From positions 1 to 32,874 of the forward strand of contig CAXXSM010000065.1 in NCBI GenBank assembly GCA_963663405.2: a stretch of DNA of 32,874 nucleotides. The letters run 5' to 3'. Under the pieces are notes generated by a model. It was given only the letters and a program-made list of their open reading frames with translations, was not told the origin of the DNA and did not search any database. This DNA is from a bacterium. GTDB taxonomy: Bacteria > Hinthialibacterota > Hinthialibacteria > Hinthialibacterales > Hinthialibacteraceae. The position numbers and the translations under genes were made by a program. Below are positions 1,241 to 27,922 of the stretch, piece after piece. Within the stretch, counting starts at the first letter, position 1; every line of letters begins with the position of its first letter.

Positions 1241-1387
1241 AAATCAAATCCTCCCACAGTATGATTGCCATCTTTGCCATAGATTTTGGATTTAAAACAA
1301 TTTCCCCAAACCGGTCAACGTATTATTTAGTTTTCCCGCAAGCGAACCTACAATGATCCATTACATGAATGGTTTTGGTTGCAGGCT

Positions 1388-6636: not shown

Positions 6637-7740
6637 TCAATTATCGATAATTTTTCTGCCATCCAATGTATCCAAAATCTGCATCAACCGGCGTTTGGCT
6701 TTGTGTTTCAACCTCAAATCCAGTAAATATTGTTTCCAATCCGCCATTCGCTTCAAGGAATGATACAGATTTTTCATCTTGCGAAGATAGATCGCCGCTG
6801 TTTGGTATTCCGATGGTTTTACTGCCGCGATATGAGATTCCGCCAGCGTTCGCCATATGACAAGAGAGTCATCCGGATATTTTGATTTTAACGCTTCGGC
6901 AACACGGTCGTCATTGGATAAAACTCTGTTACGCTTCTGTTTCTGTATATTGAACCATTTCAACACATCCTCGGGCCGCTTTTCTTCGATGGCTATATCG
7001 ATTAGCGTTTGCGTATTGGGAAAATGCGGCTGAAATCGCGGCTTGGGAACGGTCAATCCGCAATCCGGCAATGGCCACGAATCTCTTTTTTCGGGATGTT
7101 CGCCGGTTTCTAGAAAGTGAAGGGCTGCTTCTTGTATCGTTGGCCACAAGCGTATTGCCTTGGCCGTCTTTTGCAAATCTTGATATGCATTCGAACTAGG
7201 CGAATGAACGAATTCGAGAACGCGAAAGGATGCAACCAGCTTTTTGTTTTTTTCAATGGCGGCGATTTCTCTGAGTTTTCGTTCCAAAGACCAAGCGAGA
7301 CCAGACAAAGATCCAACCGTATCCTCAAAACCTCGACGCGCCCATTCACGAGCCCTCTCGTATTCCTTTGAGCCGATCAAGCAATCTACCAACCGTTCGT
7401 AGCATTGCGTAATTTTAGCTTCACGTTCTAAAAGAGGAATGATGTCTTTGGTTCTTCCTCCTTCCTCATAGGCATAAATGATCCAATCGATTAGTTTCTG
7501 ACGATTATACTTTTCTGAAAAAGACGAGTCTTCTCTAATAATCGGCATAGTTGAGAGACGATTTTCCAATTCTTCAGAAACGGATTTCCAATCGCTTTTT
7601 GTATAAATACGCTTTCGCAGATATTGCTCGTAATCATCGAGGATGGAGTAATTGTCCTGCAAGAACAAATCGATCATCCATTTTAACTGCTCGACCTTTG
7701 AAAGATTGGATTGAGAGATCGCCTTAAATACGATTTCCAT
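6637..7740 (-). pseudogene. C-terminal helical part of an IS-interrupted SWIM zinc-finger protein
   Basis: Intact 367-codon frame starting at the duplicated ATGGAA; it continues in frame from ISQCME of the 10153-10956 fragment once the IS and one TSD copy are removed. Confidence 0.85.
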
Positions 7741-10152
7741 CAGACCTCACTAAAACAGCCATTTTTACCCCAAAATAATCGCAAATAAAATTCCCGCTTA
7801 CCGAGGGAATTTGCTGTCAACCTACTCCCCTCTACAATCCAGTAATTCCATAAAAAAAACAGAGAGGGACTCATCATTTCTCATTTATCACATTCCGATT
7901 ATTTACAAAAGATTTTAGGCACGGACAAGAGAAATCCGGTGTTTACGATTTTCTGCGATGAAGAGGAAGACCAGTTGCATGTCTATTACGGCGCGGATCT
8001 ATTAGAAATTGTACCGGACGATCGAGAGCATATCGAATACAAATTACTCGTCGCTCGACTCTACAACGCCAACCTCAATGCGACCATCTTGCAAGAAGTC
8101 TTTCAAGTGGACCGGAAAACTATGAAGCGGTGGGGAGCCGCTCTTCGCTCTGGGGATAGTGAACAACTACGGAAAGTGTTGTTTGGCCGCCAAGCGCGAA
8201 GAAAACTCACTCCGGAAATCGAATCGTATATCCGCATGCGATTTCCCGCGATTTACGAGGAAACAAAATATGAATATAGCAAACGGATGCGGGAAGAAAT
8301 TGAGCAGGTGTTCGGCTGCACGCTATCCGGGGAAACGCTCCGTCCCTTGCTGAGAGAATTGAAGGAAAGCATAAAAGTTCAAAAGGAAAATGAGGAAACT
8401 CCCTGGGATTGTGAGCAGGAACCCGAGATCGAAGAAGAGGAGAAGACAAGCGAAATTGGCTCTGAAAACGAAGAAATTCGAGAACAATCTAAGGAGTCAT
8501 CCACACCAATGCCTTGTAACAATCGCAAGGAGTCTCCCGAATTAAAGGAAGCCTTTCCGGAGGAAGTGACGCTGTGTCATCACCTGGGCGTGTTGCTGTT
8601 CAGCGCCTTGTTTCTTAGTCTCGACGCTTTCCCGGGGGAGGAGAGTTGGCTGCTCAAACAATGGGTGGCGATCATCTTGTTAGGAGCGGTCAATATCGAA
8701 CAAACCAAGTTGCTGGATTTCGAGGATTTGAAACGGCTTTTGGGGAAGTGCATGCGCTCCTTGCATGACCAACGAACGCATCTGGGCCAAATGGCGACGG
8801 TCGCGATGGCGGAGCAGGTTCTTCGGTTAAACGCCGCAGAGGTCGATGCGGCGGCGAACGATGACTTTTATTACGATCCCCATACGAAACTCTATACAGG
8901 AATCCAGAACGTCTTGAAAGGCTGGTGTCCAAGCATTCGTTCGGCGGATAAAGCGCTCCATATGGATTTTATTCACACGGCGGCGGGGCATCCGGTGTAT
9001 CTCGAATCGACCGATAACTACGAAGACATGCGGGATCGGTTTTTTCAGGTGACCAACCACTTTCGAGCGCTTTTACAGATGGATAAAAAGAAGGTGATCA
9101 CCTTCATCGTTGACCGTGGGATATACAGTCTTGAAGTCTTTCAGAAATTCATCGAAGATCCTTCCACGCATGTGATCACGTGGGAAAAGAATTACAAGTT
9201 GGCGCCTTGGCCAGCGGAACCGGCGCCGGGAGCCTTCACGCTGGAACGGAACCGCAATTGCGCTACGGATCTGCAACTCTATACCTTCGCCTGCCTTGAT
9301 GAGCGCTGGGAAAAGGATTCGTCGATGCGGAGGCTGCGCGTGCGCGCGACCAATCCCAAAGGACGGACGATCGAAGTGGGCGTATTGACCGATGACTTGA
9401 CTCGGCCGGCCCCAGAGATAATTACCTTGATCTTCCGGCGCTGGATCCAGGAAAATGATTTTAAGTATTTGGACAAACACTTTGGGATTAACGAAATCAC
9501 CAGTTATGCGGTGATTCCTTACAAGCGATTACAAGATCACCTGGAAGATCAACAAATGAAGAGCGGCGCATATAAAGCGCTGGAAATGGAACGAAGCCAA
9601 ACGCAAGAGAAATTGGGCAAACTCTTGGTCCAGGAACGTCAACATCCCGGGAAAAATGCAAAACGTGCCGAAAAGATTCAAACCTTGTCTCACCGGCTGG
9701 ATGAGATTGACGAGGAAATGAAAACGACAGAAAAGGAAATGTCCCGGCTTGAGTTTTTAATCGAGCAGGATTGCGTCCGCTTGGATACACGCAATAAGTA
9801 TTTGATGGACGTTTTGAAATTGTTGGCGCGAAATATCTTTTACAAAATGCTGGAGCCGTTCAAAAAAGAGTATGATAATTACAGGGATGATCACGTGCTC
9901 TTTCGTTCCTTAACTCAATCGGATGGAGTCATCAAACAACAGGGAGATCAGGTGGAAGTCATTCTCCTTCCGAAACCGAATTATCCACCGAAAGTAAGGC
10001 GGATTATGGAGCAGTATCTGGCTAACATCAATGAGACCCACCCCCTTATGCCCGATGGCTCGAATCGGCAAATTCACTTTCGACTGGGGAAAAAATCGGA
10101 ATTTGAAATTGCGATTGTTTCAGTACCAAAACGGCCGAAATAGTGAGTTCTG
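7741..10152 (+). mobile_element. Insertion sequence, 2412 bp, large DDE transposase (family unassigned; IS4-superfamily-like motifs)
   Basis: IRL CAGACCTCACTAAAACAGCCATTTT (7741-7765) vs reverse complement of 10128-10152 CAGAACTCACTATTTCGGCCGTTTT (19/25); TSD TTCCAT at 7735-7740 and 10153-10158. Confidence 0.93.
7939..10143 (+). CDS. DDE transposase (734 aa)
   Basis: N-terminal HTH-like segment (VFQVDRKTMKRW); D in YYDPH, D in IVDRG, E in RWIQENDFK; coiled-coil insert; the stop codon lies within the right IR. Confidence 0.88.
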   Translation: MFTIFCDEEEDQLHVYYGADLLEIVPDDREHIEYKLLVARLYNANLNATILQEVFQVDRKTMKRWGAALRSGDSEQLRKVLFGRQARRKLTPEIESYIRMRFPAIYEETKYEYSKRMREEIEQVFGCTLSGETLRPLLRELKESIKVQKENEETPWDCEQEPEIEEEEKTSEIGSENEEIREQSKESSTPMPCNNRKESPELKEAFPEEVTLCHHLGVLLFSALFLSLDAFPGEESWLLKQWVAIILLGAVNIEQTKLLDFEDLKRLLGKCMRSLHDQRTHLGQMATVAMAEQVLRLNAAEVDAAANDDFYYDPHTKLYTGIQNVLKGWCPSIRSADKALHMDFIHTAAGHPVYLESTDNYEDMRDRFFQVTNHFRALLQMDKKKVITFIVDRGIYSLEVFQKFIEDPSTHVITWEKNYKLAPWPAEPAPGAFTLERNRNCATDLQLYTFACLDERWEKDSSMRRLRVRATNPKGRTIEVGVLTDDLTRPAPEIITLIFRRWIQENDFKYLDKHFGINEITSYAVIPYKRLQDHLEDQQMKSGAYKALEMERSQTQEKLGKLLVQERQHPGKNAKRAEKIQTLSHRLDEIDEEMKTTEKEMSRLEFLIEQDCVRLDTRNKYLMDVLKLLARNIFYKMLEPFKKEYDNYRDDHVLFRSLTQSDGVIKQQGDQVEVILLPKPNYPPKVRRIMEQYLANINETHPLMPDGSNRQIHFRLGKKSEFEIAIVSVPKRPK

Positions 10153-10956
10153 TTCCATACATTGCGAGATCTCCGTCGCCGTCATTCCATCGTCATCGGA
10201 TTGCTCAACTTGCTTGTTCCCCTGGATGAAAAGATAGCGGCCTAATTCAACTAATTCATCGGCATGGCCCTTTTTTAAAAGCGCTTCAAATTTTCGCTCG
10301 ATTTCAGAATAATCTGGGATGCTTGATTCCCCTGACCAGTGATTGCTCCAGGCCGGTTCATCGGTTATTTCATCGATGTCCGCCCGAATGGATTGGCATA
10401 ATTGATCGATATTTCCTTCAACGAGATTCATTCGATCGGTAATCTTGTTGCGCAATTCCGGATGTTGGTCGATCAAATCAAGAATCCATTCCACCAATTC
10501 GGCTTTTTTCTTTTTCTCTAAAAACGTTCTGAGCGTTTTTGTGGACGATTGCTTAGTCGTATTGAATGTTGAATAAATCTCGTCTTCGTCATCCCCGTCA
10601 TCACTCCATCCATCCTCAAGGCATCCCAACCGGGGATCGTTCGCTTGAGTTGGTTTGATTGTTTTCTTCTCTTTGATTTCGTCGAGATAAAGTAAAATAA
10701 CCGCAACAGCATGCTTGCATGGTCCCCAATCGTAGGGACACGTGCAGTCACACGCCAGCTCGTTTTTTTCGATCCAGACATGAGTGGCGTATTTCTCGGT
10801 TCCCCATACCCATGCCAGCAGCCCTCCTTTTTCCGTTAATCGTAAATCCTCGACTTCGGATTTATACGAACGTCCCCGGTTGACGATTTTTGATCCTGAT
10901 CAGGAATCAAGATCATCCCATTTGATGTCCTCGAATTTTAATCTCTTTTTTGACAT
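10153..10956 (-). pseudogene. N-terminal part of SWIM zinc-finger protein (IS-interrupted, in-frame TGA at codon 19)
   Basis: MSKKRLKFEDIKWDDLDS*SGSKIVNRGRSY...CDCTCPYDWGPCKHAVAV (SWIM CxC-xn-CxH motif); TGA at 10900-10902; same frame as ORF 10120-10629. Confidence 0.85.
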
Positions 10957-11140
10957 TATAATTTCCAGCAAGTAGTGAATTGTTTTCGTTGAATATCTTT
11001 AATTTACTGTATAAATCGGCTATAGCCAAGAAACAAGATCATGCCAAAATAATATAAGTGGACGTTCAAATCACACTTTCGCGCAGACGCATATGGTTGT
11101 TCCAAGAACAGATTCAGATTATTAGGGGGCAAATAGATGA

Positions 11141-11167
11141 GGGCATCAGCTTATTGGGCTGAGGGCC
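11141..11167 (+). repeat. tRNA-Gly anticodon-stem mimic 1 (possible integrase core-type site)
   Basis: GGGCA-TCAGC-TTATTGG-GCTGA-GGGCC; compare the att fragment TTCCCAA-GCTGA-GGGTC. Confidence 0.6.
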
Positions 11168-11235
11168 AACTATACAAAAAACCTCATTTGAACCATTTCT
11201 CATAATAGTATTGTTCAATAAGAACGGTAGTTTTC

Positions 11236-11255
11236 GTCCACCCTCTGTCCACCCT
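11236..11255 (+). repeat. Tandem direct repeat, putative integrase arm-type sites (left arm)
   Basis: GTCCACCCT at 11236-11244 and 11247-11255. Confidence 0.75.
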
Positions 11256-11384
11256 TTAGGGGGATTTTAAGGGCTAGAAAGGGTGTTTAAGGGTATCATT
11301 CCATTTTTTTCTTGGTCTCAGAAAGGCTTGATAATACCTGATTTAGAACGATCTTCCGCGTAGTTCCACCATTGCCGCCTTCTA

Positions 11385-11426
11385 TTCCCAAGCTGAGGGT
11401 CGCGGGTTCGAACCCCGTCTCCCGCT
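11385..11426 (+). other. 3' half of tRNA-Gly(CCC): att core for a tyrosine-integrase element, not a functional tRNA
   Basis: Loop TTCCCAA, stem GCTGA, variable loop GGGTC, T-arm GCGGG-TTCGAAC-CCCGT, acceptor strand CTCCCGC plus discriminator T. No 5' half upstream and no CCA. Confidence 0.9.
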
Positions 11427-11478
11427 TACTGATTTTGTTAGACTTATAGCATTTTTTGAAAAGTTCTTTTTTATCGTC

Positions 11479-11499
11479 ATCCACCCTCCTGTCCACCCT
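11479..11499 (+). repeat. Tandem direct repeat, putative integrase arm-type sites (right arm)
   Basis: ATCCACCCT at 11479-11487 and GTCCACCCT at 11491-11499; same motif and orientation as the left pair. Confidence 0.75.
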
Positions 11500-11601
11500 T
11501 TTCCAAAATATTGAATCAAAAATCACCAATCTCTCATTGTGAAGTTTTCATTAATTGCATACAAATCAGGAAGTTATAAATTTCAATGATTCCGGGTTGA
11601 C

Positions 11602-11630
11602 TAGAGCATCAGCTCAATGAGCTGGAGGTT
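11602..11630 (+). repeat. tRNA-Gly anticodon-stem mimic 2 (possible integrase core-type site)
   Basis: TAGAGCA-TCAGC-TCAATGA-GCTGG-AGGTT; TAGAGC resembles the 3' side of a tRNA D-arm. Confidence 0.6.
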
Positions 11631-11670
11631 CCCTTAAGAAACTATGAGTAGAAATTAGAGTTATTTATCT

Positions 11671-13428
11671 CCTAAATTGAGCGATTCTTCTTGAAAAATA
11701 TTCACTTTAAATGAAATTACAAAGATCAACTATGTTGTTTGATAAATGTAAGTTAAATTTCATTGAAAATCCAGTAAGTAAAGAACGTGTGAGTGAAATG
11801 TTGGGTATGAACAAGAGTCGTCGAGTGGAAATTTACAGCCTATAGGCGCACTTATCCTGTTACATTGGCAGGTCTTCAAGATGGAATTATCTTTTTTTTT
11901 ACTTAGGTCCAAACAAATTGAGGGGGATTCTTACATCGGTCCCAGAGTATATCGAGTTGGAGATCGTTCCAAGTGGCCTGAGTGAACTTGATCCATATCT
12001 CTCCACTCTTTCGAACAATCTTTGAAGCGATATCAATTACTTTTCGTCGGAAAGTCGACGCATACGTTTCGAGAGGCAAGATCGCCTCACATGTATCTGC
12101 TTTGAAACATTCGTATAAAAAGTGAGAGACAACCATTGTGTAATAGTAGGCGGCATTCGGAGCGAACCGCTGGAACGGTAGGGCCTCGAAGGCAAAGTTC
12201 TTGAAGGCGCGATGGACTAGTTCATCCCGTCCCCGTCCATGAGCGCATTCGAGGATCTTTTCGGTCTGGATGAGATCCTGCCGACCAACGAATAGGAGTT
12301 GTTCGTCAATCGACTCACCTTGCCCCAAGTTGGTATAGAGTATCGTCAGGGGACGAAACGCGTCAAACACTCGCTGCGGATCTTCCGGGGTGAAGCGGCA
12401 GAAAATGGCGCGGCGCGATTTTGACCAACTCGCTCGCCGATCCTCCATCTCGTAATAATCCCATCCGTCTTTCCCATTGGTATACTTTTTCCACTCTTCT
12501 TTCTCCAGGCTTTCGGCATAGTCCGAAAGGTCTTCGTAGAGTTTCCCCCCACAGATATACCCGACCTTCAGCGCTTCAAATTCCTGGAAGAGTTTTTCGT
12601 CGAAAAATCCTCCATCCAGAAGAAAGACGATGGCTACGTCTTTCCGATATTTTTTCCGGATGAGTTTCACGATTTCTCGCGCCATGTTGGCCACCGTCTC
12701 TCCATGGTTGCAATGTTTCTTGCCTCCACGGAACACCGCATCTATAATCACTCGCTTCCACGTCATCTGCAACGGGTGAAAGCCTTTCTTTTTTTTGTAC
12801 GTCGGCTGCACTCCATCCCGCTTGCTGGCTTCGTCGTTGTCCATCACCATTGAATCGATTCCGAGATAAATGACTGGTGGATTCTCCAACCGCAACCGCC
12901 ACAGGAACAGTTGCTTCAACAGTTTGCGAAACGCCCAAACCAGGGGCATGGAAAAGGCTTTAAAAAATCGTTTGACGCTGTGAGAGGAGACCATCTCCTC
13001 CGACGTCAGTTCGAGACTGGCGGTATAGCCTTGATCCGTTTTCAATTGGTCAAAGTAAGTCAAATGGCGGCTCATGCCATTCATTAAATTACAGATCACT
13101 TGTTTTAAGATGGTTTCGATTGACTGTCCTTTTTTACTTTTTCGGATGGAGCCAAATAGCATTCCTAAGACAGAAAGAATTTGTATGTTTTCAATATACT
13201 TTGAAAAGAAATTGAGTCCTCCTCGCGAAGTCAGCACATCGGAGGTGACTCCAATTTTAGTGATCTTAGCCGGATTTCGTTTCGATTTTTTCTTGGAACG
13301 CGCCATTGATTTCCCTCACCCAATAGGTTAGATTAAATTATGAATGCCATATATGTATAACGTATGAGAAATCAAAGCGTTACGCAGTTTTTTATCAGTA
13401 TTATTCACACATAATCGCTCAGCTTAGG
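11671..13428 (-). mobile_element. IS1380 family insertion sequence, 1758 bp
   Basis: IRs CCTAAATTGAGCGATT (11671-11686) and CCTAAGCTGAGCGATT (reverse complement of 13413-13428), 14/16; 5-bp TSD TATCT at 11666-11670 and 13429-13433. Confidence 0.92.
11903..13306 (-). CDS. IS1380 family transposase
   Basis: LTSRGGL, GIDSMVMD, YKKKKGFHPL, FRGG, LDGGFFD, HGRGRDELVH and LPFQRFAPNAAYY motifs. Confidence 0.9.
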   Translation of the reverse strand: MARSKKKSKRNPAKITKIGVTSDVLTSRGGLNFFSKYIENIQILSVLGMLFGSIRKSKKGQSIETILKQVICNLMNGMSRHLTYFDQLKTDQGYTASLELTSEEMVSSHSVKRFFKAFSMPLVWAFRKLLKQLFLWRLRLENPPVIYLGIDSMVMDNDEASKRDGVQPTYKKKKGFHPLQMTWKRVIIDAVFRGGKKHCNHGETVANMAREIVKLIRKKYRKDVAIVFLLDGGFFDEKLFQEFEALKVGYICGGKLYEDLSDYAESLEKEEWKKYTNGKDGWDYYEMEDRRASWSKSRRAIFCRFTPEDPQRVFDAFRPLTILYTNLGQGESIDEQLLFVGRQDLIQTEKILECAHGRGRDELVHRAFKNFAFEALPFQRFAPNAAYYYTMVVSHFLYECFKADTCEAILPLETYASTFRRKVIDIASKIVRKSGEIWIKFTQATWNDLQLDILWDRCKNPPQFVWT

Positions 13429-13517
13429 TATCTGAACATACCTTTATTTATTGGAGATGATGTTTGCATAAGGTCCTTTGGATAAATCTTTAGACTTACT
13501 CACAACAAATCTCTTAA

Positions 13518-13895
13518 TCATTTTGACGGGACAGATTGGCTTGAATCAGGGATTTTGCCTGCGAGCAAAGAAAGCATGGTCTTTCCATATCTCTTACCAA
13601 ACATTCTCGATCCTTCTGAATTGAAATGCAAGCGGTCTGGATGGCATGCGCAAACCGCAGAAGATATCACATAGTTCTTCATCCACCCGCGTTCTGGATT
13701 GTCAAAATCAGCCATGACCTGAAAACGTGGATCGGCGGTTCGGTCTACCTCATCCATTTTTCCTCCATTCTCCATGTTGGATTGACCAAAACAAAGGAAA
13801 ATATAAAAATTCGGATCGGGATCGGCGAACACCCTGACTGAGAACAAGCCCAGGGCTATCAGTACAAGTAAAGTTTGTTTTATTTTCTGTACCAT
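13518..13895 (-). pseudogene. CE6/SASA-type acetylxylan esterase with a large in-frame internal deletion
   Basis: Signal peptide and DPNFYIFLCFGQSNME (catalytic Ser) are joined after about 30 aa directly to the C-terminal YVISS..C..DRLHF..G.R..GKRY. The central HQGE block is absent; only 125 aa. Confidence 0.8.
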
Positions 13896-13927
13896 TGCGC
13901 GCTCCAATAATTTAGAGTAAGAAAATA

Positions 13928-16321
13928 CTACTTTGCTTCCGGAGCGCCTGGCTTGAGCAGACGCACATCATACAACCCTCCAGCGAGCCACCGTTTTACG
14001 GAAAACCGAACCGTTAGCCGACTAGTGCTTGCATTTACTAGGATTTCAGAGGGAATCGCATACCGCTTTTCAATAAAACTGTTTGGTTTTTCCCCGGTCA
14101 ATTTCTGTGTAGCGATCACGGTTCCGTTAACCAGAATATCGAATTCCCGGCCCCGGTCGTCACCGGAATACGTTACGGACAAGGTCACCTCTTTTTCGCC
14201 TTTCGGATCAAGAGTGTATTGAATCCAGGCTCCATGCCGCCAGCGTCGACCATTGTGAGTTCCCGACTCCATTCCTTCGCCTTTCAGGTCATGCTCCACT
14301 TCGGGTTGCTGTTCTCCCACAGCGACAGCGTCGAGTGTAGCGGCTTCGAGTGCGGCGCGGGCACGTTCCTGAGCGGCGATTTTTTCTTTGCGGGCCTTGA
14401 TCTTTTCAGCACTGGTGAGTTCCCAGTACATCTGGTAACGTCGTTCGTTTATTCTGAAGAATGGCATCAAAGGTATGCCCTTGGATTCAGGTGGCTCGAT
14501 CACATCTTTAATACGGAAGTGAAGCGATCCGGCAGCCACATCGGGAAAAATATGATTGAGAAGTTCCTTTTCATTGGTCAGCAAGGTCGGAACTTGATCG
14601 AGTGGTCTCATCGGGCCATTGGCAACGTGAGCCATTCGGCCTTCGTCAGCAAACAATCCCTCCAATTGATCTGTCCCGTCAGGCTTGGCAAGTACAATCG
14701 GGCCATTCAGGATAGCCACCCAATCAGAACCGTCAGGCAGACGCTCTACGTGCGTGCGCATGGGGAAGTCCACATCCACTGTATCGCCATCTTTCCACTC
14801 CCGTTGAATCGCGGCGTATGAAGAGGGGGCTGATTTGATTTCTACAGTTTGACCATTGACCTTGATTTCAAAACCACTGGTATCGGCCCAGGCTGGATGG
14901 CGGACGTGCAGTGTGAAACGCGTAGGTTTTTCAAGTTGAAGACGCAACTGTGTACGCTCTTCATCCGGGAATGTAGTCTCCTGCTTCAAAACCAATCCTT
15001 TTTCAAGTACAGAAAGTTTGGAGGAGATGAATAGATTGACATACACTCCATCTTTGGCCTGGGCATAGATGAACTCGCCGTACCGACCTGGATTTTCCAT
15101 ACCGGTTCCCACGCAACACCAGAATGCATGTTCAGGCTGTGAATATACCCGGTAATGGTCCGGACGGATTGAAGTGAAGTAAACATAACCGGGCTTTTCA
15201 GGATGGATCGAAGCCAGGATATGATTGTAAAGAGCGCGTTCGTAAAAGTCAGCATAAGCGGCTTTGGGTTCCGCCTTAAACAACTGCTCCGTTAGTCTGA
15301 GCATGTTGTAGGTATTGCAGGTTTCGGGGCCTTGTCGATGTTCAATAACTCTGCTGAAATCACGGGGATCGTTGAAATGCTCGCTGACGCTATTACCGCC
15401 AAAAGCCAGACTGCGATGCTTCGCTACTGTGTCCCAGAAGAACGTAGCGCCTGTGTGTAGTGTTTTATCATGGGTTAGCGCCGCGATACGCTCCATTCCT
15501 ACAATCTTAGGAATTTGAGTGTTGGCATGGAGGCCGGTAAGCCGGTCTTGATGATTTTCCAGTGGTACGAAAACAGCCTTGTGGTTAAAGCGTTTAGCCA
15601 GTTCAATGTATTTTTGCTCTCCGGTAATTTCATAGATATCGGCCAACACTTCGTTCATACCGCCATATTCAGTGTCGAGCATTCGCTGCATTTGTGCGTC
15701 GGTTAGACCGGATGTGACCTTTTCACACCAGTCTCCAAAGTGAATGAGCAGACCGCGAGCCGCTTCGGCGCCTCCGAGGAGATAGGCGTCCCTGAGTCCG
15801 GCAAACATTTTATGTAGGTTATACCACGGAACCCATTTTCTTCGTATCGCTTCGATTTGTCCCTCAGCGATACGGCTCCATAGTTCTTTACTACCAGGGA
15901 CTCCTCCGATGTAACCGTCCCCGTTGTTTTTTTGAATTTGATCAAGTTCAGCGATCATTGCTTCAAGGCGACGTTGAAGTTCTCCGTCTGGATCAGCCCC
16001 CGATGCTATCATGAGTGAAATCGCGGAAAGATAGTGACCTGCGGTATGCCCGTCGAGCCCCATGCTCTCCCAGTTGCCATACGGTTTCGCCTTGGCATCC
16101 AATCCCGCTTCGCGGCGGAATGGCGCAAGCAATCGGTCTATATCATGTGCCAACAGATATTGTCGATTGATTTCTACTGCTTTGGAAAATGGACTTTCAA
16201 GTAAGCGCACGTCTTTCAACGGGAAGAGTTGAACTGCTTGAAATTTCTCGATTTGTTCGGCAAAGCAGTTCACTACCAATATGACAGCAAACAGTGTAAC
16301 AATCATTATTTTCATCTTCAT
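13928..16321 (-). CDS. GH127/GH146-type beta-L-arabinofuranosidase, secreted, with C-terminal beta-sandwich domains
   Basis: GHTAGHYLSA, PWYNLHK, EYGGMNE, HANTQIPK, ETCNTYNML and FWCCVGTG motifs; signal peptide; 797 aa intact. Confidence 0.9.
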   Translation of the reverse strand: MKMKIMIVTLFAVILVVNCFAEQIEKFQAVQLFPLKDVRLLESPFSKAVEINRQYLLAHDIDRLLAPFRREAGLDAKAKPYGNWESMGLDGHTAGHYLSAISLMIASGADPDGELQRRLEAMIAELDQIQKNNGDGYIGGVPGSKELWSRIAEGQIEAIRRKWVPWYNLHKMFAGLRDAYLLGGAEAARGLLIHFGDWCEKVTSGLTDAQMQRMLDTEYGGMNEVLADIYEITGEQKYIELAKRFNHKAVFVPLENHQDRLTGLHANTQIPKIVGMERIAALTHDKTLHTGATFFWDTVAKHRSLAFGGNSVSEHFNDPRDFSRVIEHRQGPETCNTYNMLRLTEQLFKAEPKAAYADFYERALYNHILASIHPEKPGYVYFTSIRPDHYRVYSQPEHAFWCCVGTGMENPGRYGEFIYAQAKDGVYVNLFISSKLSVLEKGLVLKQETTFPDEERTQLRLQLEKPTRFTLHVRHPAWADTSGFEIKVNGQTVEIKSAPSSYAAIQREWKDGDTVDVDFPMRTHVERLPDGSDWVAILNGPIVLAKPDGTDQLEGLFADEGRMAHVANGPMRPLDQVPTLLTNEKELLNHIFPDVAAGSLHFRIKDVIEPPESKGIPLMPFFRINERRYQMYWELTSAEKIKARKEKIAAQERARAALEAATLDAVAVGEQQPEVEHDLKGEGMESGTHNGRRWRHGAWIQYTLDPKGEKEVTLSVTYSGDDRGREFDILVNGTVIATQKLTGEKPNSFIEKRYAIPSEILVNASTSRLTVRFSVKRWLAGGLYDVRLLKPGAPEAK

Positions 16322-16386
16322 GTTGATACTCCTATGTGATTACACGATTCATAACATAATCAAATTTAAACAATATATAAATCAGT

Positions 16387-16411
16387 GATGGGTCGGCAAG
16401 TGCGACCCATC
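16387..16411. terminator. Intergenic stem-loop between the GH10 and GH127/146 genes (weak terminator or mRNA-stabilising hairpin)
   Basis: GATGGGTCG-gcaagtg-CGACCCATC, perfect 9-bp stem; no clean U-tract. Confidence 0.5.
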
Positions 16412-16454
16412 CATCAGAGAATTCTATATTGTTAAAAAAATGCAGTAATCAAAT

Positions 16455-17573
16455 CTATTGGTTATCCTGTACCGATTTGACTACCGCGTGGAACGCCTCT
16501 TTGGGTTGGTAACTCCGATCAAACAATAAGGGAGAGCCACCGATCCAGGATGCGCCATCATAGATGCCCCAAAATGTAACGCGTGTAACATCGTCTTTGT
16601 GTTTGTTCAGGATCGAAAAAATCTCGGTATATTTCTCTGCAACTTTTTTCTGAGTTTCCTCCGAGTTTGCATCCGGATCACTTGTACTCTGCCGGTTCAC
16701 CCGACTGATATCGGCGCCGCGATATCCTCGCCGCCGTGTTCGGATATCCAATTCCGTAATCATTACTTTGACGCCGGTTGCAGCCAGACTGGTGATCGCG
16801 TATTCAAGACCTTCTGCGCTTGGGTACTCCAATCCCCCATGCAGTTGGATACCAACAGCATCGATGCGGATGCCCTTGGACTTTAAATGCTTTACGATCT
16901 CGACCGCTCCATCGGTTTTCTTTTTTGAGGTTTCCAAACCGTAGTCATTGTAGTATAACTCAGTGTCGGGATCGGCTTCATGAGTCCATTGAAAAGCTTT
17001 TTCGATGTAATCGTATTTCTTTTCTTCAGCGCCTTCACCGATGATCTCTAGCCATTTGCTTTTCCTTAGCGAACCGTCGCCTTCCAGTGCCTCATTGACA
17101 ACATCCCAACCCTTGATTCTGCCTTTATAGCGACCGACAACCGTATCGATATGATTCTTCATGCGATTTAAAAGCGCGTCTCTTGTCAGATCGCTTCCCC
17201 CATCGTCAAGAAAAACCCAGCGCGGAACCTGACTATGCCATACAAGGCAATGGCCTATGGCTGCCATTTTATTTTTCTCGCAGAACTCCATAAACTCGTC
17301 AGCCGGTCCCCAGTTGTATTGGTCGATCCGGGGATAAATGCGCTGCCATTTCATGGCGTTTTCTGCAGTCGCTGTATTAAAGTGTTTTTCAGCGAGCGCC
17401 GCCGCATTGGGATCTCGTCCTGCAATCACCCATCGATTCATCGCCCCGCCTATGAGGAAGTGATTCTTGAATACTTCTTTTAACACGGGGACATCCTGTT
17501 CAGCCGCATTTGAAAGTGCGCAATTCAAGAGGATCAATGCGCTCATTATTGTGATAATTCGTTTTCTTTTCAC
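16455..17573 (-). CDS. GH10 endo-1,4-beta-xylanase, secreted
   Basis: ENAMKW, GHCLVWHSQ, WDVVNE (acid/base), YNDY, GIQLH, ITELD (nucleophile), VTFWG; signal peptide. Confidence 0.95.
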   Translation of the reverse strand: MKRKRIITIMSALILLNCALSNAAEQDVPVLKEVFKNHFLIGGAMNRWVIAGRDPNAAALAEKHFNTATAENAMKWQRIYPRIDQYNWGPADEFMEFCEKNKMAAIGHCLVWHSQVPRWVFLDDGGSDLTRDALLNRMKNHIDTVVGRYKGRIKGWDVVNEALEGDGSLRKSKWLEIIGEGAEEKKYDYIEKAFQWTHEADPDTELYYNDYGLETSKKKTDGAVEIVKHLKSKGIRIDAVGIQLHGGLEYPSAEGLEYAITSLAATGVKVMITELDIRTRRRGYRGADISRVNRQSTSDPDANSEETQKKVAEKYTEIFSILNKHKDDVTRVTFWGIYDGASWIGGSPLLFDRSYQPKEAFHAVVKSVQDNQ

Positions 17574-17606
17574 GGACTACTCCCATTCTTCAAGTAAGAT
17601 GTGCAT

Positions 17607-20182
<2,576 letters not shown>

Positions 20183-20593
20183 TAGGAATCTCCTTTTGAG
20201 GGGTTTAGTTTTTAAAAGTCGATCCACTACTCATGAAAGTTCCAACACTCAAAAAACGAATGAGATAGCGAACAATCCATAAAATATCACATTTGAAACG
20301 TCAATTGATAGGTGAAAGCATTGGAATTTCTTAATATATCTCATCAAACTGAAAGTGAAATGCAATGAGAATCATTTACTAATTTATAACAAAAAATACA
20401 TATCCAATACACATTGCAATATTAACTGGTATTTTCTAGATATTTGGCAAATATCATACGGAAACTGAAAATTGAACATTTATGGGATGAATCGAGTTTC
20501 ACGATTCTCGTTTATATAGAGAATTTGCAACTTTTTCTATACAATCGAAGACAAATAAAAGTAATCTTTTTGAAAGGTGTCCGGAATATCACT

Positions 20594-22921
20594 ATGCAAT
20601 CAAGACGTGTTACCCTCCTTGTATTATTTTTCCTTCTATCAAGTAATGTGATTTTCGCACAGGCCCCATCTGAACCGCTCAGCCTTTGGTATCGACAACC
20701 ATCAGAACGATGGACGGAAGCGCTTCCAATCGGGAATGGGGCGTTTGGGTGGAATGATTTTCGGCGGCGTCAGTCAAGAACGAATTCAACTGAATGAAGA
20801 CACCTTATGGGCCGGTGGACCTTACGATCCGAATAATTCTGAAGCATTGGAAGCATTACCCAAAGCGCAACAGCTGATATTTGAAGGCAAGTATCGAGAA
20901 GCGGATCGCCTGATCGGTCAGAAAATGATGGCGAAACCACTAAAGCAGTTGCCCTATCAAGTGGTTGGCGACCTGCTCCTTACTTTTCCGGGAGGGAAAC
21001 TCGCTTACAAATTATCGGAGAACTCTCAATCTTGATACAGCAATCGCCAGCGTTTCATATACTCATGATGATGTTGAGTACTCTAGAGAATATTTTTCCA
21101 GTCCGGTCGATCAGGTAATCGTTATTCAATTAAAAGCCAATAAACCGGGGCAGCATTTCATTTTCAGCAGGAATAAAAACACCTCAGTCTGCATCTGTTT
21201 CCGTTGAATCACCGGGAACACTCCTACTGGATGGCGTCAACGGTGATGCTATGGGGATAAAAGGCGCGTTGACATTTCAGGCTCGTGTGAGAGTAAAACA
21301 GACCGGCGGCGAGTTGATAGAAAATGAGAACCAAATCACCGTAGAAAAAGCTGATTCGGCTATCCTTCTCATTGCCGTCAATACTAGTTTCATAAGATAC
21401 AACCGATGTAAGTGGTAATCCAGCAGAACTGACAAAAGAAACTATCAAGTCGGCAAATTTAAAGTCTTATCAAGACCTCAAACAAAAACATATCACTGAA
21501 CATCAACGACTTTTCCGTCGTGTATCGCTTGATTTGGGGACAAGCGACGCGATGAAACTTCCAACCGATGAACGCATAAAGAATTTTGCCAATGGTAATG
21601 ATCCCCAACTGGCAAGTTTGTATTTTCAGTTTGGACGTTATTTGCTGATTTCCAGTTCCAGGCCAGGTAGTCAACCTGCTAATTTGCAAGGAATCTGGAA
21701 TGAAAGTATGAGACCGCCATGGGACAGTAAATACACAATCAACATCAATACGGAAATGAATTACTGGCCCGCTGAACCAACCAACTTGGCGGAATGTACT
21801 GAACCGCTGATTGGGATGGTAATGGATATCGCTGAAACGGGAAGTCGAACAGCAGAAGTACAGTGGGGCGCAGGCGGCTGGGTCTGCCATCATAATACGG
21901 ACCTGTGGCGAGCAACAGCCCCAATCGATGGTCCCGCTTGGGGATTCTGGCCAACCGGCGGCGCATGGTTATGTAAACACTTATGGGAACGATACGAGTA
22001 TGGTGGAGATAACGATTACCTGAAAAAGATATATCCTGTACTCAAAGGCGCATCGCAGTTTTTTCTTGAAACGCTAGTGGAACATCCAAAATTCGAGTGG
22101 CTGGTTACTTGCCCTTCGCTTTCACCGGAGAACGGACACAAATACGGTGTGAGTATCTGCGCCGGTCCAACTATGGATATGCAAATCATCCGTGATCTGT
22201 TTACGTACTGTATCAATGCCTCAGAAATCCTGAAGCAAGATAACGATTTTCGCAGCAAAGTGATATCCGCTCGCGAACGGCTTGCCCCAAATCAGATCGG
22301 AAAAGAAGGTCAACTTCAGGAATGGCTTGAAGACTGGGATATGGAAGCGAGAGATATTCACCATCGCCATGTATCCCATCTCTATGGGCTTTATCCCAGC
22401 GACCAGATCAATGTCATCCATACACCGGATTTGGCCAAAGCGGTTCGTAAATCACTTGAGATTCGAGGTGACAACGCTACCGGTTGGGGAATTGGCTGGC
22501 GTCTAAACCTCTGGGCGCGCCTCCACGATGCTGAACACGCCTATAAGATACTCACAATGCTTATACACCCTCAACGAACATACCCAAATATGTTCGATGC
22601 TCATCCGCCTTTCCAGATTGATGGTAATTTCGGCGGTACATCCGGTATCGCGGAAATGTTTCTACAGTGTATGCAAAATGAAATTTTGCTTCTTCCTGCT
22701 CTGCCGAAGGCTTTTGCCAATGGATCGGTTCAAGGTTTATGCGCCAAAGGCGGATTTGAAATAGACATTGAGTGGAAAAACGGAAAACTGGCAAAAGCCA
22801 TCATCCATAGTAAAAATTGGTAATAAGTGCAATATCCTGTAATAACGAACAAACGAAAAACCTGCAGATTGATGCGGGGAATGAAATCATACTTGATCAT
22901 GATTTGAACATAATTCAATGA
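20594..22921 (+). CDS. GH95 alpha-L-fucosidase/alpha-L-galactosidase, broken by several frameshifts
   Basis: [74 protein letters not shown] and [11 protein letters not shown] motifs spread over at least five frames. Confidence 0.9.
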
Positions 22922-23185
22922 CAGTGCTGAATGGGAATCATTATAAAGTATTGCAAGGAAGTGGAGATTAAATAGTGAATTAAATCTTAATGAAACGCTG
23001 TTTTGGCACGCTTGAAATTCTATTAACGGATTGACTTTGGCTATTGTCCGCTCGATTACTGAAAAAGCTGGTTTGATAAAAGTAGCGGCAAGATCTCAAG
23101 AACTACAAGAAACGCAATTAACGAGAAAAAGCCAATAACCAAAATGAATTTTCAACAATAGTAATATGTATTGAAAGGTCTACTA

Positions 23186-24269
23186 ATGAAAAAATCAAAA
23201 GTTACTCATTTTGCGGTCTCAATGGCGTTCGTATGCTGTGTTCTTTTTACCTATATTTCAGATTCAGCATCACAAAACCAAGCGGATGCTCGCGAACCAA
23301 TAAGTAAAACCACTGTCGAAGCGCCTTTTGACACACCGTTGAAATGGACATCTTCGGATATCCTGGTCAAGCCTGTCTCTGATGAAACCCACAGTATAGT
23401 ATCGGTCAAAGATCCTACAGTGGTTCGTTACAATGATTTGTGGCACATCTATGCCACGGTCTATTCAACATCCGCCAGAACCTGGAATATGGTGTACCTG
23501 AATTTTAAAGATTGGTCTGATGCACCCAATGCCAAATTACATTTTGTCGATCAAAACCCGAATTTAACCGGATATCATTGTGCGCCGCATTTGTTCTATT
23601 TCAGTCCACACAAGAAATGGTATTTAATTTTTTCAATCTCAACAGCCTCAGTATTGTACAACGGATGATCTTTCCAAACCGGAAACCTGGACCAAGCCGC
23701 AAGACTTTTTTGATTCAAAACTCCCACTGCTCCACGCTTATGGATTGACTATTGGGTGATTTGTGACGACACACATGCCTATCTGTTCTCACTGGTGATA
23801 ACGGGCGTACGTATCGTAGCCGAACCAAGATCGAAGATTTCCCCAAAGGTATGAGCGAACCGGGAAGTTATTATTGAAGGAAGACGATTGATGTTTTTGA
23901 AGGCAGCATGACCTAACAAGATCAAAGGCACTGATAAATATATAACACTTGTCGAAGCGATTGGTCCTGCCCGCTATTACCGTGCCTGGATTGCTGATCA
24001 CCTAAATGGAGATTGGACGGAGTAACCAACGCGAACACATGGGATACACCGTTTGCCGGGATCAACAATGTCTCCTTTGCAGAAGGTATTGAAGCCTGGA
24101 CCCAAGGATATCAGTCATGGGGAATTACTCCGCGATGGATATGATGAAACGATGACAATCGATCCCTTATAACCTACAACTGCTTTTTCAGGGACGCGAT
24201 CCATCGTCCGGTGGTCGATACGAACTTTTACCCTATCGACTTAGTCTCTTGAAATTAAATCAGAAATAA
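23186..24269 (+). CDS. GH62 alpha-L-arabinofuranosidase, broken by several frameshifts
   Basis: [19 protein letters not shown] and [13 protein letters not shown]; shifted frames give [35 protein letters not shown] and [13 protein letters not shown]. Confidence 0.88.
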
Positions 24270-24318
24270 TCAAAACACAACTTTATTAACCGTATCTAAC
24301 CGCTTAGAGGAGAAAAAC

Positions 24319-27300
24319 GTGGAAAATCTTTTTAAGAAACTTATATCATCACTCGCACTTTTTTGCCTACTCATTGTTTTTACAAGTACTCTTTTAGCAA
24401 GGCAATCGGACAATGGTAACGGAACCTATACCAATCCACCTCTTTATGCCGATTTCCCAGATCCAGACATTATTAGAGTCGGCGATGATTTTTATTTTGC
24501 GACAACCACCTTTGTGAATACGCCAGGATTAACGATTCTACACTCTCAAGATTTAGTTAACTGGAAATATCTTTCCCATGTCATCAAACGGTTGGATGGA
24601 CGGTCAGAATACGATCTTCAAAATGGTACAGCCTACCGATCTGGAATATTTGCACCAAGCCTTCGATACCATAATAGCACTTTCTATGTGGCTGTAACTC
24701 CAGTGGGACAAAAGACTAGAATATACACAGCAAAAGAAGCAAGAGGCCCCTGGAGTTATACCGAATTAGACCGCAGTGCATTTGATCCAGCCTTATTTTT
24801 CGATGATGACGGCAAGGGTTATGTAGCGACATCGGCTGGATACGACGGAATACTCACTCTTTTGACCCTAAACGATGATTACACTGAAGTAGAAGAAGAA
24901 AAAAAGGTCTTTTTTAACAGAGGCGCTGAAGGATCAAAGATTATCAAACGTGGAGATTGGTACTATTTGTTTCAATCCATACCCCAGAAGATTGGGAATG
25001 GATATATCGCGTGCTAAAAGCCTAAATGGCCCTTGGGAAACGAAACGGTCTATCGACGATCGAACCGGCGGTCATCAGGGAGCCATTGTCGATCTGCCTG
25101 ACGGGAGTTGGTACGGATTCGTGATGTGTGATTTCAAATCTGTAGGCAGAATCACTAATATCAGCCCTATCTTTTGGCAGGATGATTGGCCCATGTGGGG
25201 AACGCCAGACGCACCAGACCGAGTACCGGATGTTGCTACCAAACCAATTCAAGGCAAACCGGTCTTTGAGCCAGCAACTTCAGATCAATTCGATTCCGAT
25301 ACACTGGGATTACAATGGCAATGGAATCACAATCCTGACGATAATCGCTGGTCGCTTACCGAACGGCCAGGCTATCTTCGTCTTAAAGCAACTCAATCCG
25401 ATCAATTTTGGACAGCACGCAATACGCTTACCCAAAAGGGCTGGGGCCCGTGGTGTCAAGGTACCGTTACATTGGATATAAGCAATCTCAAGCCTGGAGA
25501 TATCTGCGGTTTTGGGACATTAGGAAAATTCAACGGACACTTAATCGTTACTTGCAATGAACAAGGCGGATTATCTCTTGAAAAACAAGTGATGGAAGAT
25601 ATAAGAAACGGCCAGAAAACACATGAAAGCGAGATGCTAACTTCCATTAATACCCATTCTATTACGCTCCGTACGGAGATGGACTTTGAAACCCATAAGG
25701 GAAAATGTTCATATAGTTTGGATGGTCAGAATTGGTCTGATGCTGGTGCAGAATTTCCGCTCCAATTCGATTGGCAAACGGGAACGTTTCAGGGACAGCA
25801 ATTCGCCATCTTTTGCTACAATCCTGAGCCTAGTGCAGGTTTTGTTGATATAGATTCCTTTATTTTGACTGATGATAAATCCGCGCAACAAATAAAGCCT
25901 GTGTCTTTCGATAATTTCGAATACACGGGAGAAGATATCAATGCAACGTTTCCACTTTCTTCCGGTCAGTATCGTAATCCGATTCTCGCAGGTTTTCACC
26001 CTGATCCGAGTATTTGCCGCGCAGGCAAGGATTACTACCTGATTAATTCGACATTCGAATACTTTCCCGGTTTACCGATCTTTCATAGTACCGATCTTGT
26101 AAATTGGAAACAGATTGGCCATGTTATTCATCGCCCTGAACAACTCGACTTTAGAAACCGTCGTGTTAGCGCCGGACTATTCGCCCCAACCGTCACTTAT
26201 CATGATGGACTTTTTTACGTTGTGTGTACCAAGATCGACGGCCCAGGCAATTTCGTAGTAACCGCTGAAGATCCGGCTGGCCCATGGTCTGATCCCATCC
26301 CCTTAAAGTTTGGCGGAATTGATCCCTCGATCTTCTTTGATGACGATGGAACATCTTGGATTGTCTATAACGATGCTCCGGAAGACAGACCATTATATAA
26401 CGGGCACCGTGCAGTTTGGATTCAGCAGTTTGATCCTAAAAATAAAAAAATGTATGAGTCGCGTAAGTTACTCATTAATGGCGGTGTCGATATTTCAGAA
26501 AAGCCGGTTTGGATAGAAGGACCGCATATCTATAAACTCAATGGTTGGTACTACCTCTGCTGTGCTGAGGGTGGCACGAGTACGCAGCATTCACAAGTCA
26601 TTTTTCGCAGTAAAAAAGTCGATGGCCCATTCATCCCTTGGGATAAGAATCCGATCCTGACTCAACGTGATTTGGATGGCAATGCACCCAACGCTGTTAC
26701 TTGTACGGGACATGCCGATTTGGTTGTCGGACCGGACGATAACTGGTGGGCTGTATTTCTTGCCGTACGTCCATACAAAAATGGGCTTTCTCCAATGGGA
26801 CGAGAAACGTTCTTGCTGCCTGTCAATTGGACGGATGATGATTGGCCGATCATCTTGCCGCCGGGCGAGCGAGTACCACTTGTAAGCAAATCACCCAATG
26901 GCGTTGAAATTCAAGCATCAGATGCACCTCTCAATGGCAGTTTTACTTGGAGTGATGATTTCAAACAGAAGGATCTTTCATCGGAGTGGATCATGCTTCG
27001 TGATCCTAAGGAGGAATGGTGGAACGTAAATACAACAACCGAACGCCTCGAATTAACTCCTCGGTCAGAAACGCTTAGAGGTTCTGGCAATCCCAGTTTT
27101 TTTGGGCGTCGAGTTCGACATGCTAAGTACATGTCTGCTCTATCAGTAGGCATTCCAAAGAAAGAGGGTATTTCTGCAGGATTAGTGCTTTTCATGAATG
27201 AGAGGTATCACTATTTTCTGGCTGTACAGCATAAAAACGGTAAGGCTCAACTCTATCTCGAAAAAGTCGAAGGCCGGGATGTAAGCCGAGTTGCTGAAGT

Positions 27301-27502
27301 AGAGTTATCGTCGCTAAATGAAATCGATTTACGTGTTAAAGCAGATAAGGCTACCTGTTCTTTTGAATACAAGACGAAGGACAGTGACTGGAAAACTCTT
27401 GTAGGCGATGCTGACGCTACAATCATCACATCCGCTGTTCGTGATGGTATGTTTCTTGGCGCCATTGTTGGACCTCATGTCCGTATCGATGAACCTAAAT
27501 AA
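24319..27502 (+). CDS. Secreted tandem GH43-GH43 xylosidase/arabinofuranosidase, each unit with a C-terminal beta-sandwich; one frameshift near 24980-24990
   Basis: Unit 1: DFPDPDIIR, FAP, FDP, AEG, HQG, WQWNHNP. Unit 2: GFHPDPSICR, FAP, IDP, IEGPH, GHAD, GRET. Signal peptide; GAGGAG SD. Confidence 0.9.
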
Positions 27503-27625
27503 TTTTTCGTATAGTTGCCATGCATTTAGGCTTCAGTAGGCAAAAATTCTGTGAAAATAAATAAGATGCTTATCCTGGCAGTCGTTTTATCACCATCATA
27601 GGCAATCTTAAACTTATATTAGGAG

Positions 27626-27922
27626 ATGGCCACTATGAAATCGAATAAAAACAAAGAACCGAGCAATAAAATATCTCGTCGAGAGGCATTAATCAGTGGA
27701 GTGGCGCTTTCTTCGATAGCGTTTATGCCACGTCACGTACTGGGTGGAGAGGGAAATACTCCTCCAAGCGACTTATTAAATATAGCTATGATCGGAACTG
27801 GTGGTCGCGGTTTACAGCATACGAGATCAATTACTCGGGAAGACGATTTCCGCATCGTTGCGATTTGTGATGTTTCTGCAACCAATGACTACAGCCGTTT
27901 TTACTACCGAGGTAAAGCAGGT
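27626..27922 (+). pseudogene. Gfo/Idh/MocA family oxidoreductase with Tat-like signal, 3'-truncated by an IS
   Basis: SRREAL signal, PRHVLGG..PPSDLLNIAMIGTGGRG (Rossmann), IVAICDV; the frame enters the IS at 27923. Confidence 0.85.

Follow-up and report, generated by a model that had tools for sequence, protein, structure and literature searches.

Tyrosine integrases insert certain genomic islands, including those of the Islander type, and prophages at the anticodon loop of a tRNA gene, a sublocation class reportedly described by Williams in 2002; phage HP1 is the studied case. In the attP of phage lambda, the core-type sites C and C' are accompanied by arm-type sites of a different sequence, which are bound by a separate N-terminal domain. 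The integrase IntS of KplE1 is said to be autoregulated through sites in the attachment (att) arm that overlap the int promoter, and P4 Int is likewise autoregulated via att-arm sites; both cases use arm-type sites. Annotation of the attachment sites of tRNA islands is usually limited to the short repeat that they have in common with the tRNA and, to our knowledge, the build of the att arms is known for only a handful of phages. Tn4430's internal resolution site (IRS), the site of TnpI, carries accessory recombinase motifs as direct repeats beside the core on one side and is the closest precedent for extra recombinase-binding motifs beside a core (PMC2847244). The stretch of DNA analysed here (the window) is an entire contig of 32,874 nucleotides, C65, of a bacterial genome of 8.44 Mb in 170 contigs (G000; other G numbers are relatives). 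It contains a fragment of tRNA-Gly(CCC) flanked by two outer dyads, M1 and M2, which resemble the anticodon arm of tRNA-Gly. There is, in our judgement, an even chance that M1 and M2 are accessory core-type dyads that would be bound by an integrase and not exchanged with the tRNA core. No published description of core-like dyads in both att arms of tRNA islands was found in a search that left the older footprinting papers on HP1, P2, P4 and pSAM2 outside, and the novelty of full core-like dyads in both arms is provisional.

Dyads resembling the anticodon arm of tRNA-Gly

The tRNA-Gly(CCC) fragment starts at position 11385 with TTCCCAA-GCTGA-GGGTC, and its loop (11385-11391) is the presumed crossover region. 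M1 reads GGGCA-TCAGC-TTATTGG-GCTGA-GGGCC (11141-11167) and M2 reads TAGAGCA-TCAGC-TCAATGA-GCTGG-AGGTT (11602-11630). The loop centres are at 11154, 11388 and 11617, which places M1 234 bp and M2 229 bp from the loop of the fragment. The class of dyads to which M1 belongs is called M1b below, and M1a denotes a second dyad further out. A preliminary description, made from the letters of this DNA, had reported the two anticodon-arm mimics with these positions and distances, as well as the agreement of loop 1 with the reverse complement of loop 2 at 5/7 positions; all of this was confirmed from the sequence. The host tRNA-Gly, which was checked as that description proposed, also carries the expected 5' stem GCATCAGC. 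The intact tRNA-Gly(CCC) gene of G000 (C83:35346-35419) reads ...GGTAGAGCATCAGC-TTCCCAA-GCTGAGGGTCGCGGG..., with the predicted 5' stem and the GCA flank both present.

The likeness of M1 and M2 to the tRNA extends past the 5-bp stem and reaches approximately 10 nt per half-site. Loop positions are unlike the tRNA at 5/7, while the 10+10 flanking positions are unlike it at 2/20 in M1 and 3/20 in M2. This contrast between loop and flank gave a one-sided Fisher p of 0.005 for M1 and 0.011 for M2, for boundaries picked post hoc. The anatomy is that of a core-type site, with half-sites inverted as at the crossover core and 0/14 (M1) and 2/14 (M2) mismatches. The anticodon arms of all 42 tRNAs were matched against the flanks in the window as a control; the cognate Gly arm gave these 0 and 2 mismatches out of 14, the best non-cognate arm gave 3 and the median was 4.

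On both strands of the genome, GCATCAGC-N7-GCTG had four matches, namely tRNA-Gly(CCC), tRNA-Gly(TCC), M1 and M2, and the bare stem pattern TCAGC-N7-GCTGR had 28. Searches with the 27-mer and the 29-mer at up to 7 or 8 mismatches both recovered the tRNA-Gly(CCC) gene and a paralogous M2 on C81; the M2 29-mer at 8 mismatches was found at two additional places, on C70 and C106. The exact pattern CATCAGC-N6-8-GCTGAKG was then sought in all 20 genomes of the family, with the reversed pattern as a control. Of 41 rows, 30 were true tRNA-Gly arms (CCC or TCC). The remaining 11 rows represented 10 other sites, eight of them within ~250 bp of a tRNA-Gly core and two without a core within 400 nt. The reversed pattern had no matches in these genomes. 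A chance origin of M1 and M2 is excluded. With four matches in G000 and tRNA linkage in the family scan, the motif is also not a genome-wide repeat, which the preliminary description had named among the findings that would refute its proposal.

In a wider set of genome contigs, CATCAGC-N6-8-GCTGAGGGCC was present in at least 118 stretches. Among the matches listed, the majority were genuine tRNA-Gly or tRNA-Arg genes from other phyla, or chance occurrences in high-GC coding DNA, and the clear homolog was one contig of a metagenome-assembled genome (MAG; L109), with partly similar flanks at L051 and L058. The viral contigs scanned had no match to either the M2 or the M1b pattern. In a metagenome scan with the M2 pattern, 20/20 matches lay in high-GC sequence without an upstream tRNA-Gly core, and none was att-arm-like; the flanks of these 20 matches look coding by eye.

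Conservation of the dyads in the arms of related islands

DNA similarity was searched in 61 genomes first and then in all 20 genomes of the family, and the arms were found to recur in several other genera. Sites of the M1 and M2 types are kept at the same distances in related islands of 7/20 family genomes, as the preliminary description would have it. Measured from the loop centre, M1b is at -224 to -244 in 11 rows including the window, the other loci being G001:C288, G001:C498, G010:C1, G010:C8, G012:C19, G012:C110, G015:C74, G008:C32 and one MAG contig. M2 lies at +227 to +229 in six arms, despite several indels between the tRNA and M2; its homologs are in G001:C288, G001:C253, G004:C9 and G010:C1 (two loci), with that of G000:C81 at +215. 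M1 with the left arm is 88-91% identical in G001, G012 and G015, and M2 with the right arm is 76-88% identical in G004, G001 and G010. In G010:C8, G012:C110 and G001:C498, the similarity is confined to the M1 block alone.

The M1b consensus is CATCAGC-TWDTTGG-GCTGAGGGCC, and that of M2 is GAGCATCAGC-TCRATKA-KCTGR.... Pairwise identity of the spacers was 0.81 within M1b, 0.85 within M2 and 0.42 between the classes. The loop was therefore not freely replaced, as had been supposed, since each class keeps its own conserved spacer. The best-kept half is the core-facing one in both classes, the right half GCTGAGGGCC in M1b (0.97) and the left half GAGCATCAGC in M2 (0.97). Compared with the tRNA over 14 sites, 5-6/7 spacer positions and 1-6/20 flanking positions differ.

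The P (left) arms comprise at least five types by their direct repeats, which are TCCACCCT in type A, GGAACCCT in type B, GTTGTTAY in the type of G010:C8 and G008:C32, TGTCATG in type C and GTGGCAG in type D. M1b is present in types A and B and in that of G010:C8 and G008:C32, often together with M1a. Types C and D instead have a divergent integrase gene with a CATCAGC...GCTGATG palindrome or, in G015:C111, TTTCAGC-TTCCAG-GCTGAGG immediately upstream of it. The P' (right) arms are of two types, A' with TCCACCCT repeats and B' with GGAACCCT repeats, both of which carry M2; the six arms with M2 at +227 to +229 are of these types. Across the arm-type alignments, the conserved islands are the M blocks and the tRNA part. 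Homology stops at the outer edge of M1b or M2 in several of the pairwise comparisons, for example at 11138 for G015:C74, 11628 for G004:C9 and 11624 for G001:C253. The genes beside M1 vary by locus (a DUF6880-like gene, a converging PglZ/helicase cluster, a phd/doc-type pair or an insertion sequence (IS)), which indicates that M1 is part of the arm and not of one gene.

The attP-like region spans ~550-620 bp. In the window, direct repeats TCCACCCT-N-TGTCCACCCT flank the tRNA fragment on both sides. Sequence related to the block TGATTTTGTTAGACTTA, which directly follows the fragment, also follows the intact tRNA on C83. Nucleotides 11309-11426 had BLAST matches on C129 and in G001:C498, G004:C54 and G012:C110. 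The ~90 nt from 11296 to 11384 contain TTCCACCA, and no recognisable left core half-site lies beside TTCCCAA. The M1a of the window retains 4/7 and 5/7 half-site matches; in relatives, M1a (CATAAGT-TTTTTGG-GCTGATG and kin) lies 68-70 bp upstream of M1b (G001:C288, G012:C19, G012:C110, G004:C54 and G010:C8).

In G001:C498 (L030), a single M1 combines the M1a left flank with the M1b right flank, where four other loci (L029, L032, L033 and L028) have M1a and M1b 68 bp apart; deletion between the repeats or a tandem duplication could account for the difference. Other tRNA-Gly fragments in G000 are found on C110, on C129 (decayed) and on C81, where the loop is not tRNA-like and an M2-like site lies 215 bp downstream. 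At 6732-6790 of C81 (L002), the 3' part of tRNA-Gly is joined to a dyad with a non-tRNA spacer, CCTCAGT-TCGGCGA-GCTGAGGG, which may be the scar of a secondary-site event.

The site in the window is the junction where two tandem islands meet: M1 is part of the left island's P arm, and M2 of the right island's P' arm. The preliminary description had seen one symmetric device around a single att core; the apparent symmetry is that of an attP-like P-O-P' junction. Nucleotides 13426-27921 are colinear with G010:C1 205332-186190 at 86-95% identity, and, because the right side of the window without its IS continues like the arms and the colinear island of G010, M1 and M2 come from different islands. 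The counterpart in G010 is a 22-kb stretch bounded by a fragment and a B' arm with M2, and by a type B arm with M1b and a fragment. It belongs to a tandem array on G010:C1 with members at 299, 278, 205.5 and 183 kb. For the rpoB region, identity between these genera is only 72-76%, and 72-75% between the two genera that share the right island of the window, while the arms are 76-91% identical. The island and its arms are thus far more similar than rpoB and have moved horizontally. The fragment itself has a C at tRNA position 66, where the gene of G000 (5' GCGGGAA) requires a T; this C misfits the 5' half of the host gene, which indicates that the fragment arrived with an element. The features of the window are listed in Table 1.

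Table 1. Positions of the dyads, the tRNA fragment and the neighbouring features in the window.
Feature	Position	Strand	Remarks
M1a, degenerate outer dyad AATCACA-CTTTCGC-GCAGACG	11069..11089	+	Aligns with M1a of relatives
M1 (M1b) dyad CATCAGC-TTATTGG-GCTGAGG, flanks GGG/GCC	11141..11167	+	Outer conserved site, P arm of left island
P-arm direct repeats TCGTCCACCCTCTGTCCACCCTTT, candidate arm-type sites	11234..11257	+	Repeat families D3 and D5; kept in type A arms
P-arm block adjoining the core	11296..11384	+	Common to type A and type B arms in alignment
tRNA-Gly(CCC) 3' fragment, anticodon loop to discriminator (tRNA positions 32-73)	11385..11426	+	97.6% to intact gene
Block TGATTTTGTTAGACTTA directly after the tRNA end	11430..11446	+	Kept in 7/7 aligned right arms
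P'-arm direct repeats TCATCCACCCTCCTGTCCACCCTTT	11477..11501	+	In G015:C111 part of the C-terminal coding tail of a broken integrase
M2 dyad CATCAGC-TCAATGA-GCTGGAG, left flank TAGAG	11602..11630	+	Conserved site, P' arm of right island
P' arm continuation after M2	11631..11670	+	Aligns with both G010:C1 arms; homology resumes at 13429 past the IS
IS with DDE_Tnp_1_4 transposase (11903-13306, 467 aa)	11671..13428	-	Pfam 1.2e-29; interrupts the P' arm
Right-island cargo: SASA, GH127, GH10, esterase/malectin, GH95	13426..27921		Pfam matches; colinear with G010:C1

Candidate binding protein and competing explanations

The island family appears to have its integration site in the anticodon loop of tRNA-Gly(CCC/TCC) genes, and M1 and M2 would form the functional outer limits of the two arms, P and P', in its attP-type sites. 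The dyads repeat the half-sites that flank the crossover (consensus G-R-N-C-M-TCAGC, ~10 bp, inverted around a 7-bp spacer), and since they copy core half-sites, the most likely binder would be a tyrosine integrase, acting through its core-reading domains. With spacers unlike TTCCCAA, the integrase could bind without strand exchange with the tRNA core. The dyads, ~22 helical turns away from the core, may serve to load integrase protomers or to bridge them and so affect the shape and directionality of the intasome, and where an integrase gene adjoins the arm, they could also repress int. Constant dyads and variable repeats are the pattern predicted if variable arm-binding domains recognise the repeats, and the core-reading domains of integrases with one common target recognise the dyads. 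The proposal of extra core-like sites in the preliminary description stands in that M1 and M2 are core-like dyads tied to att; of the roles it had offered, a putative regulatory integrase site fits best.

Integrases were sought as matches to the PF00589 profile, of which there were 49 across G000. Related arms adjoin integrases in G010:C8, at 206 kb of G010:C1, in G009:C62 and, as a broken gene, in G015:C111; all of the integrases checked had the usual SAM-like and catalytic domains. At 206 kb of G010:C1 and in G009:C62, the integrase start has the CATCAGC...GCTGATG palindrome immediately upstream of it, and in G015:C111 its place is taken by TTTCAGC-TTCCAG-GCTGAGG. G010:C8 is one contiguous attP-like module of int, xis (HTH_17), a 13-nt core TTCCCAAGCTGAG, repeats, M1b and M1a, and so short an identity suggests that the crossover region comprises the loop and the 3' stem. 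The broken integrase of G015:C111 has the TCCACCCT repeats within its C-terminal coding tail, and its frame continues through the tRNA fragment, as does that of an intact 420-aa integrase beside tRNA-Gly(TCC) on C141. These frames (G015:C111 4958-5686, minus strand, L038; G000:C141 3337-4599, L005) cross the arm repeats (...KGWTEGWMS...) and the tRNA (...RETGFEPATLSLGS), so that the P' arm is coding sequence in int-bearing relatives.

It is doubtful, but conceivable, that islands without int, for instance the 20-kb one of glycan-degrading genes on the right of the junction, keep the full core dyads in both arms in order to recruit any integrase that targets tRNA-Gly, whatever its arm-site specificity (integrase piracy). 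Consistent with this, M2 was present only in int-less P' arms, at about the place where the integrase gene sits in the int-bearing relative; the dyads are constant over the five arm-repeat types; and an int-less island has moved between genera. If true, piracy would mean satellite islands that are mobile without a cognate enzyme.

Several observations weigh against integrase-bound accessory sites. No PF00589 integrase was found on C65 or C83, or in G010:C1 183-205 kb, serine recombinases not being searched for, and a cognate enzyme for these arms was thus not found. The only integrase gene found with TCCACCCT repeats was the broken one in G015:C111, the int-bearing arm of which has no M2. There were no extra dyads at E1 of G010 or at the C141 and C83 elements, which indicates that not every tRNA-Gly integrase requires the dyads. 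In M1b, the spacer has 8 nt in G001:C288, G012:C19 and one MAG, and is shortened in G004:C54. In each class one half-site is better kept, and simple half-site binding leaves the conserved spacers unexplained. The 88-91% identity of the type A arms is largely due to recent transfer and not to selection. At 11 other anticodon-type tRNA fragments in G000 (Arg, Trp, Gln, Leu, Thr), no cognate look-alike was present above control level, bar one weak Trp case.

The Trp case lies on C147, ~197 nt upstream of the tRNA-Trp fragment at 17959, and reads CAGGTGA-TCGAGTT-TCAGCAT, with 2/14 mismatches to the Trp arm dyad; it is weak. Three identical matches to the tRNA-Phe arm sit in a repeated stretch, with no tRNA-Phe fragment beside them by eye or in the fragment list of the genome.

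The dyads could instead be operators or architectural sites for another protein (an HTH_17 excisionase-like protein, an island repressor or a host factor), with the tRNA likeness inherited from a duplicated core. We regard this as unlikely, though it is the alternative that survives best. The conserved spacer and the one better-kept half in each class would fit a reader of ~17-20 contiguous bases, HTH_17 genes accompany the integrases in related elements, and type B arms have M1a and M1b upstream of a phd/doc-type pair. Against it, the neighbours vary by locus and most M-bearing islands lack an HTH_17 gene close to the arm, direct repeats are the usual targets of excisionases, and the half-sites follow the shared core while the arm repeats vary.

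Somewhat less probable is that the dyads are functionless relics, that is, decayed copies of the tRNA arm or of older att cores carried in recently transferred arms. Recent movement of the arms is clear from their identity (76-91% vs 72-76% for rpoB); degenerate copies exist (M1a of the window, M2 of C81, C110 and C129); the hybrid or near-tRNA dyads of G000:C81 and G015:C111 resemble scars; and the M2-bearing islands examined have no PF00589 integrase. Decay alone, however, does not account for the clustering of the differences from the tRNA in the spacer as opposed to the flanks over the 14 sites, or for the persistence of the dyads at a fixed distance between arm types with barely alignable surroundings. 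The T arm and acceptor are also gone, where the same rate of decay would be expected.

True crossover sites with their own overlaps, used for secondary integration or for cargo swaps between tandem islands, appear very unlikely. The dyads do have the core anatomy of a tyrosine recombinase site, with inverted half-sites around 6-8 bp. The arms are mosaic, that of the window joining A' repeats to an M2 and downstream sequence like the B' arm at 205 kb of G010, and G001:C498 has one M1 where four loci have an M1a-68 bp-M1b arrangement. However, an element inserted at an M site was found in none of the loci examined, which likewise disposes of the earlier idea of landing pads for sibling elements, and the homology breaks at the outer edge of the dyad and not within the spacer. 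A 68-bp deletion is probably too short for recombinase synapsis, and slippage or tandem duplication would explain it better.

There is little to commend RNA hairpins that mimic the anticodon stem-loop of tRNA-Gly, for example as decoys for a tRNA-directed enzyme. The 5-bp stem pairs in 94.7% of cells over 15 sequences, and shuffled sequences fold somewhat less well than the M1 hairpin (z = -2.5). In the same 15 sequences, with shuffles as the control, 0/5 pairs changed on both sides and the values equalled those of the shuffles; changes break pairs (GCTGA to TCTGG or GCTAA), the folding of M2 is no better than shuffles (z = -0.7) and its spacer lacks the universal T at loop position 2. ARAGORN found no tRNA gene in the window, Rfam gave no match of any family at the gathering threshold, and no Rfam tRNA match was present in 10900-11900 even at E up to 10; neither a cloverleaf or covariance-model match nor a compensatory stem change was found, and there was no sigma-70-like promoter match. 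From the unremarkable folding and the lack of compensatory stem changes it follows that the conservation of the dyads acts at the level of the DNA sequence.

The least credible is the inverted pair flipping the ~460-bp att segment that the preliminary description had suggested, since, although the two spacers agree at 5/7 positions in reverse complement, the half-sites of both run in the same order from left to right on the + strand, their spacers differ from each other in both orientations (the consensus spacers of the relatives agree at only 4/7 in reverse complement), so that inverted crossover sites with an identical overlap are not found, and M1 and M2 come from different islands and lie apart at most loci. 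No joints of inversion, deletion or excision were listed in low-depth Logan contigs, which cover the stretch at 2-3x; at that depth this speaks neither for nor against such events.

Island cargo and comparison with known systems

The left island contains genes for a RecD2-like helicase and a DUF6880-like protein. The RecD2-type helicase at 1379-3546 consists of two overlapping open reading frames (ORFs) of 526 aa and 196 aa, so a frameshift is possible; a RecD2-like N-terminus is also present in the related island on C110. The DUF6880-like gene (6637-7740 and 10120-10629) is apparently split into 169-aa and 367-aa pieces by a 2.4-kb IS at 7740-10152, which encodes a 734-aa transposase with a weak Transposase_29 match and has copies on C119, C147, C77 and C81. 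A 1.76-kb IS is inserted 40 bp after M2, with TATCT on both sides; copies are present on C7, C28 and C77 at 98-99.7%, and a 278-bp end at 92% on C81.

The cargo behind the A' arm differs between genomes, with GH29 in G004 and G001, SASA and GH127 in the window, and TIR-, SIR2- and phosphorylase-like genes in G010 (labels read off ORF translations). Defence-like genes are present in islands with these arms, including PglZ-/helicase-like, TIR-, SIR2- and phosphorylase-like genes and a large helicase, again labelled from translations (G015:C74 12170-20000, L034; G010:C1 1-4800, L019; G008:C32 1-4400, L157). The right flank had also been considered as native host sequence, as host-like genes follow in G004 and G001. 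This was rejected on account of the variable cargo, the P-arm-like repeats, the tRNA piece that misfits the 5' half and an island similarity higher than that of rpoB.

A whole island family here has the crossover dyad copied in full in each of its two arms, at a fixed distance and across changing arm-repeat types, which is a testable design principle. Extra core-type sites of this kind could set the geometry of the intasome, its directionality or the expression of int, and could explain the movement of integrase-less islands between genera. The dyads also mark the true outer limits of the att region and so help to delimit islands in tandem arrays.

As in other anticodon-loop islands, the fragment starts at the loop with the intact gene elsewhere, islands are arrayed in tandem at one tRNA, the arms contain repeats, and the relatives carry an integrase and an HTH_17 excisionase-like gene; horizontal mobility is likewise found here. 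The differences are the extra full dyads ~230 bp out in both arms and the lack of an integrase in several islands. The similarity to KplE1 and P4 lies in the dyad directly upstream of the integrase start codon in the arm of G010:C1 (206 kb), G009:C62 and G015:C111, although the site is core-like here and neither site in the window adjoins an integrase gene. As in the TnpI system, the accessory motifs share the core recognition sequence; here, the dyads are not direct repeats beside the core, and lie on both sides, ~230 bp away, in integrative islands that have separate arm repeats. The locus is like lambda attP in its large attP-like region, which has a core at its centre, repeated sites in the arms and a fixed geometry of these arms. 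Unlike in lambda, the outer arm sites copy the core dyad and are present besides separate direct repeats.

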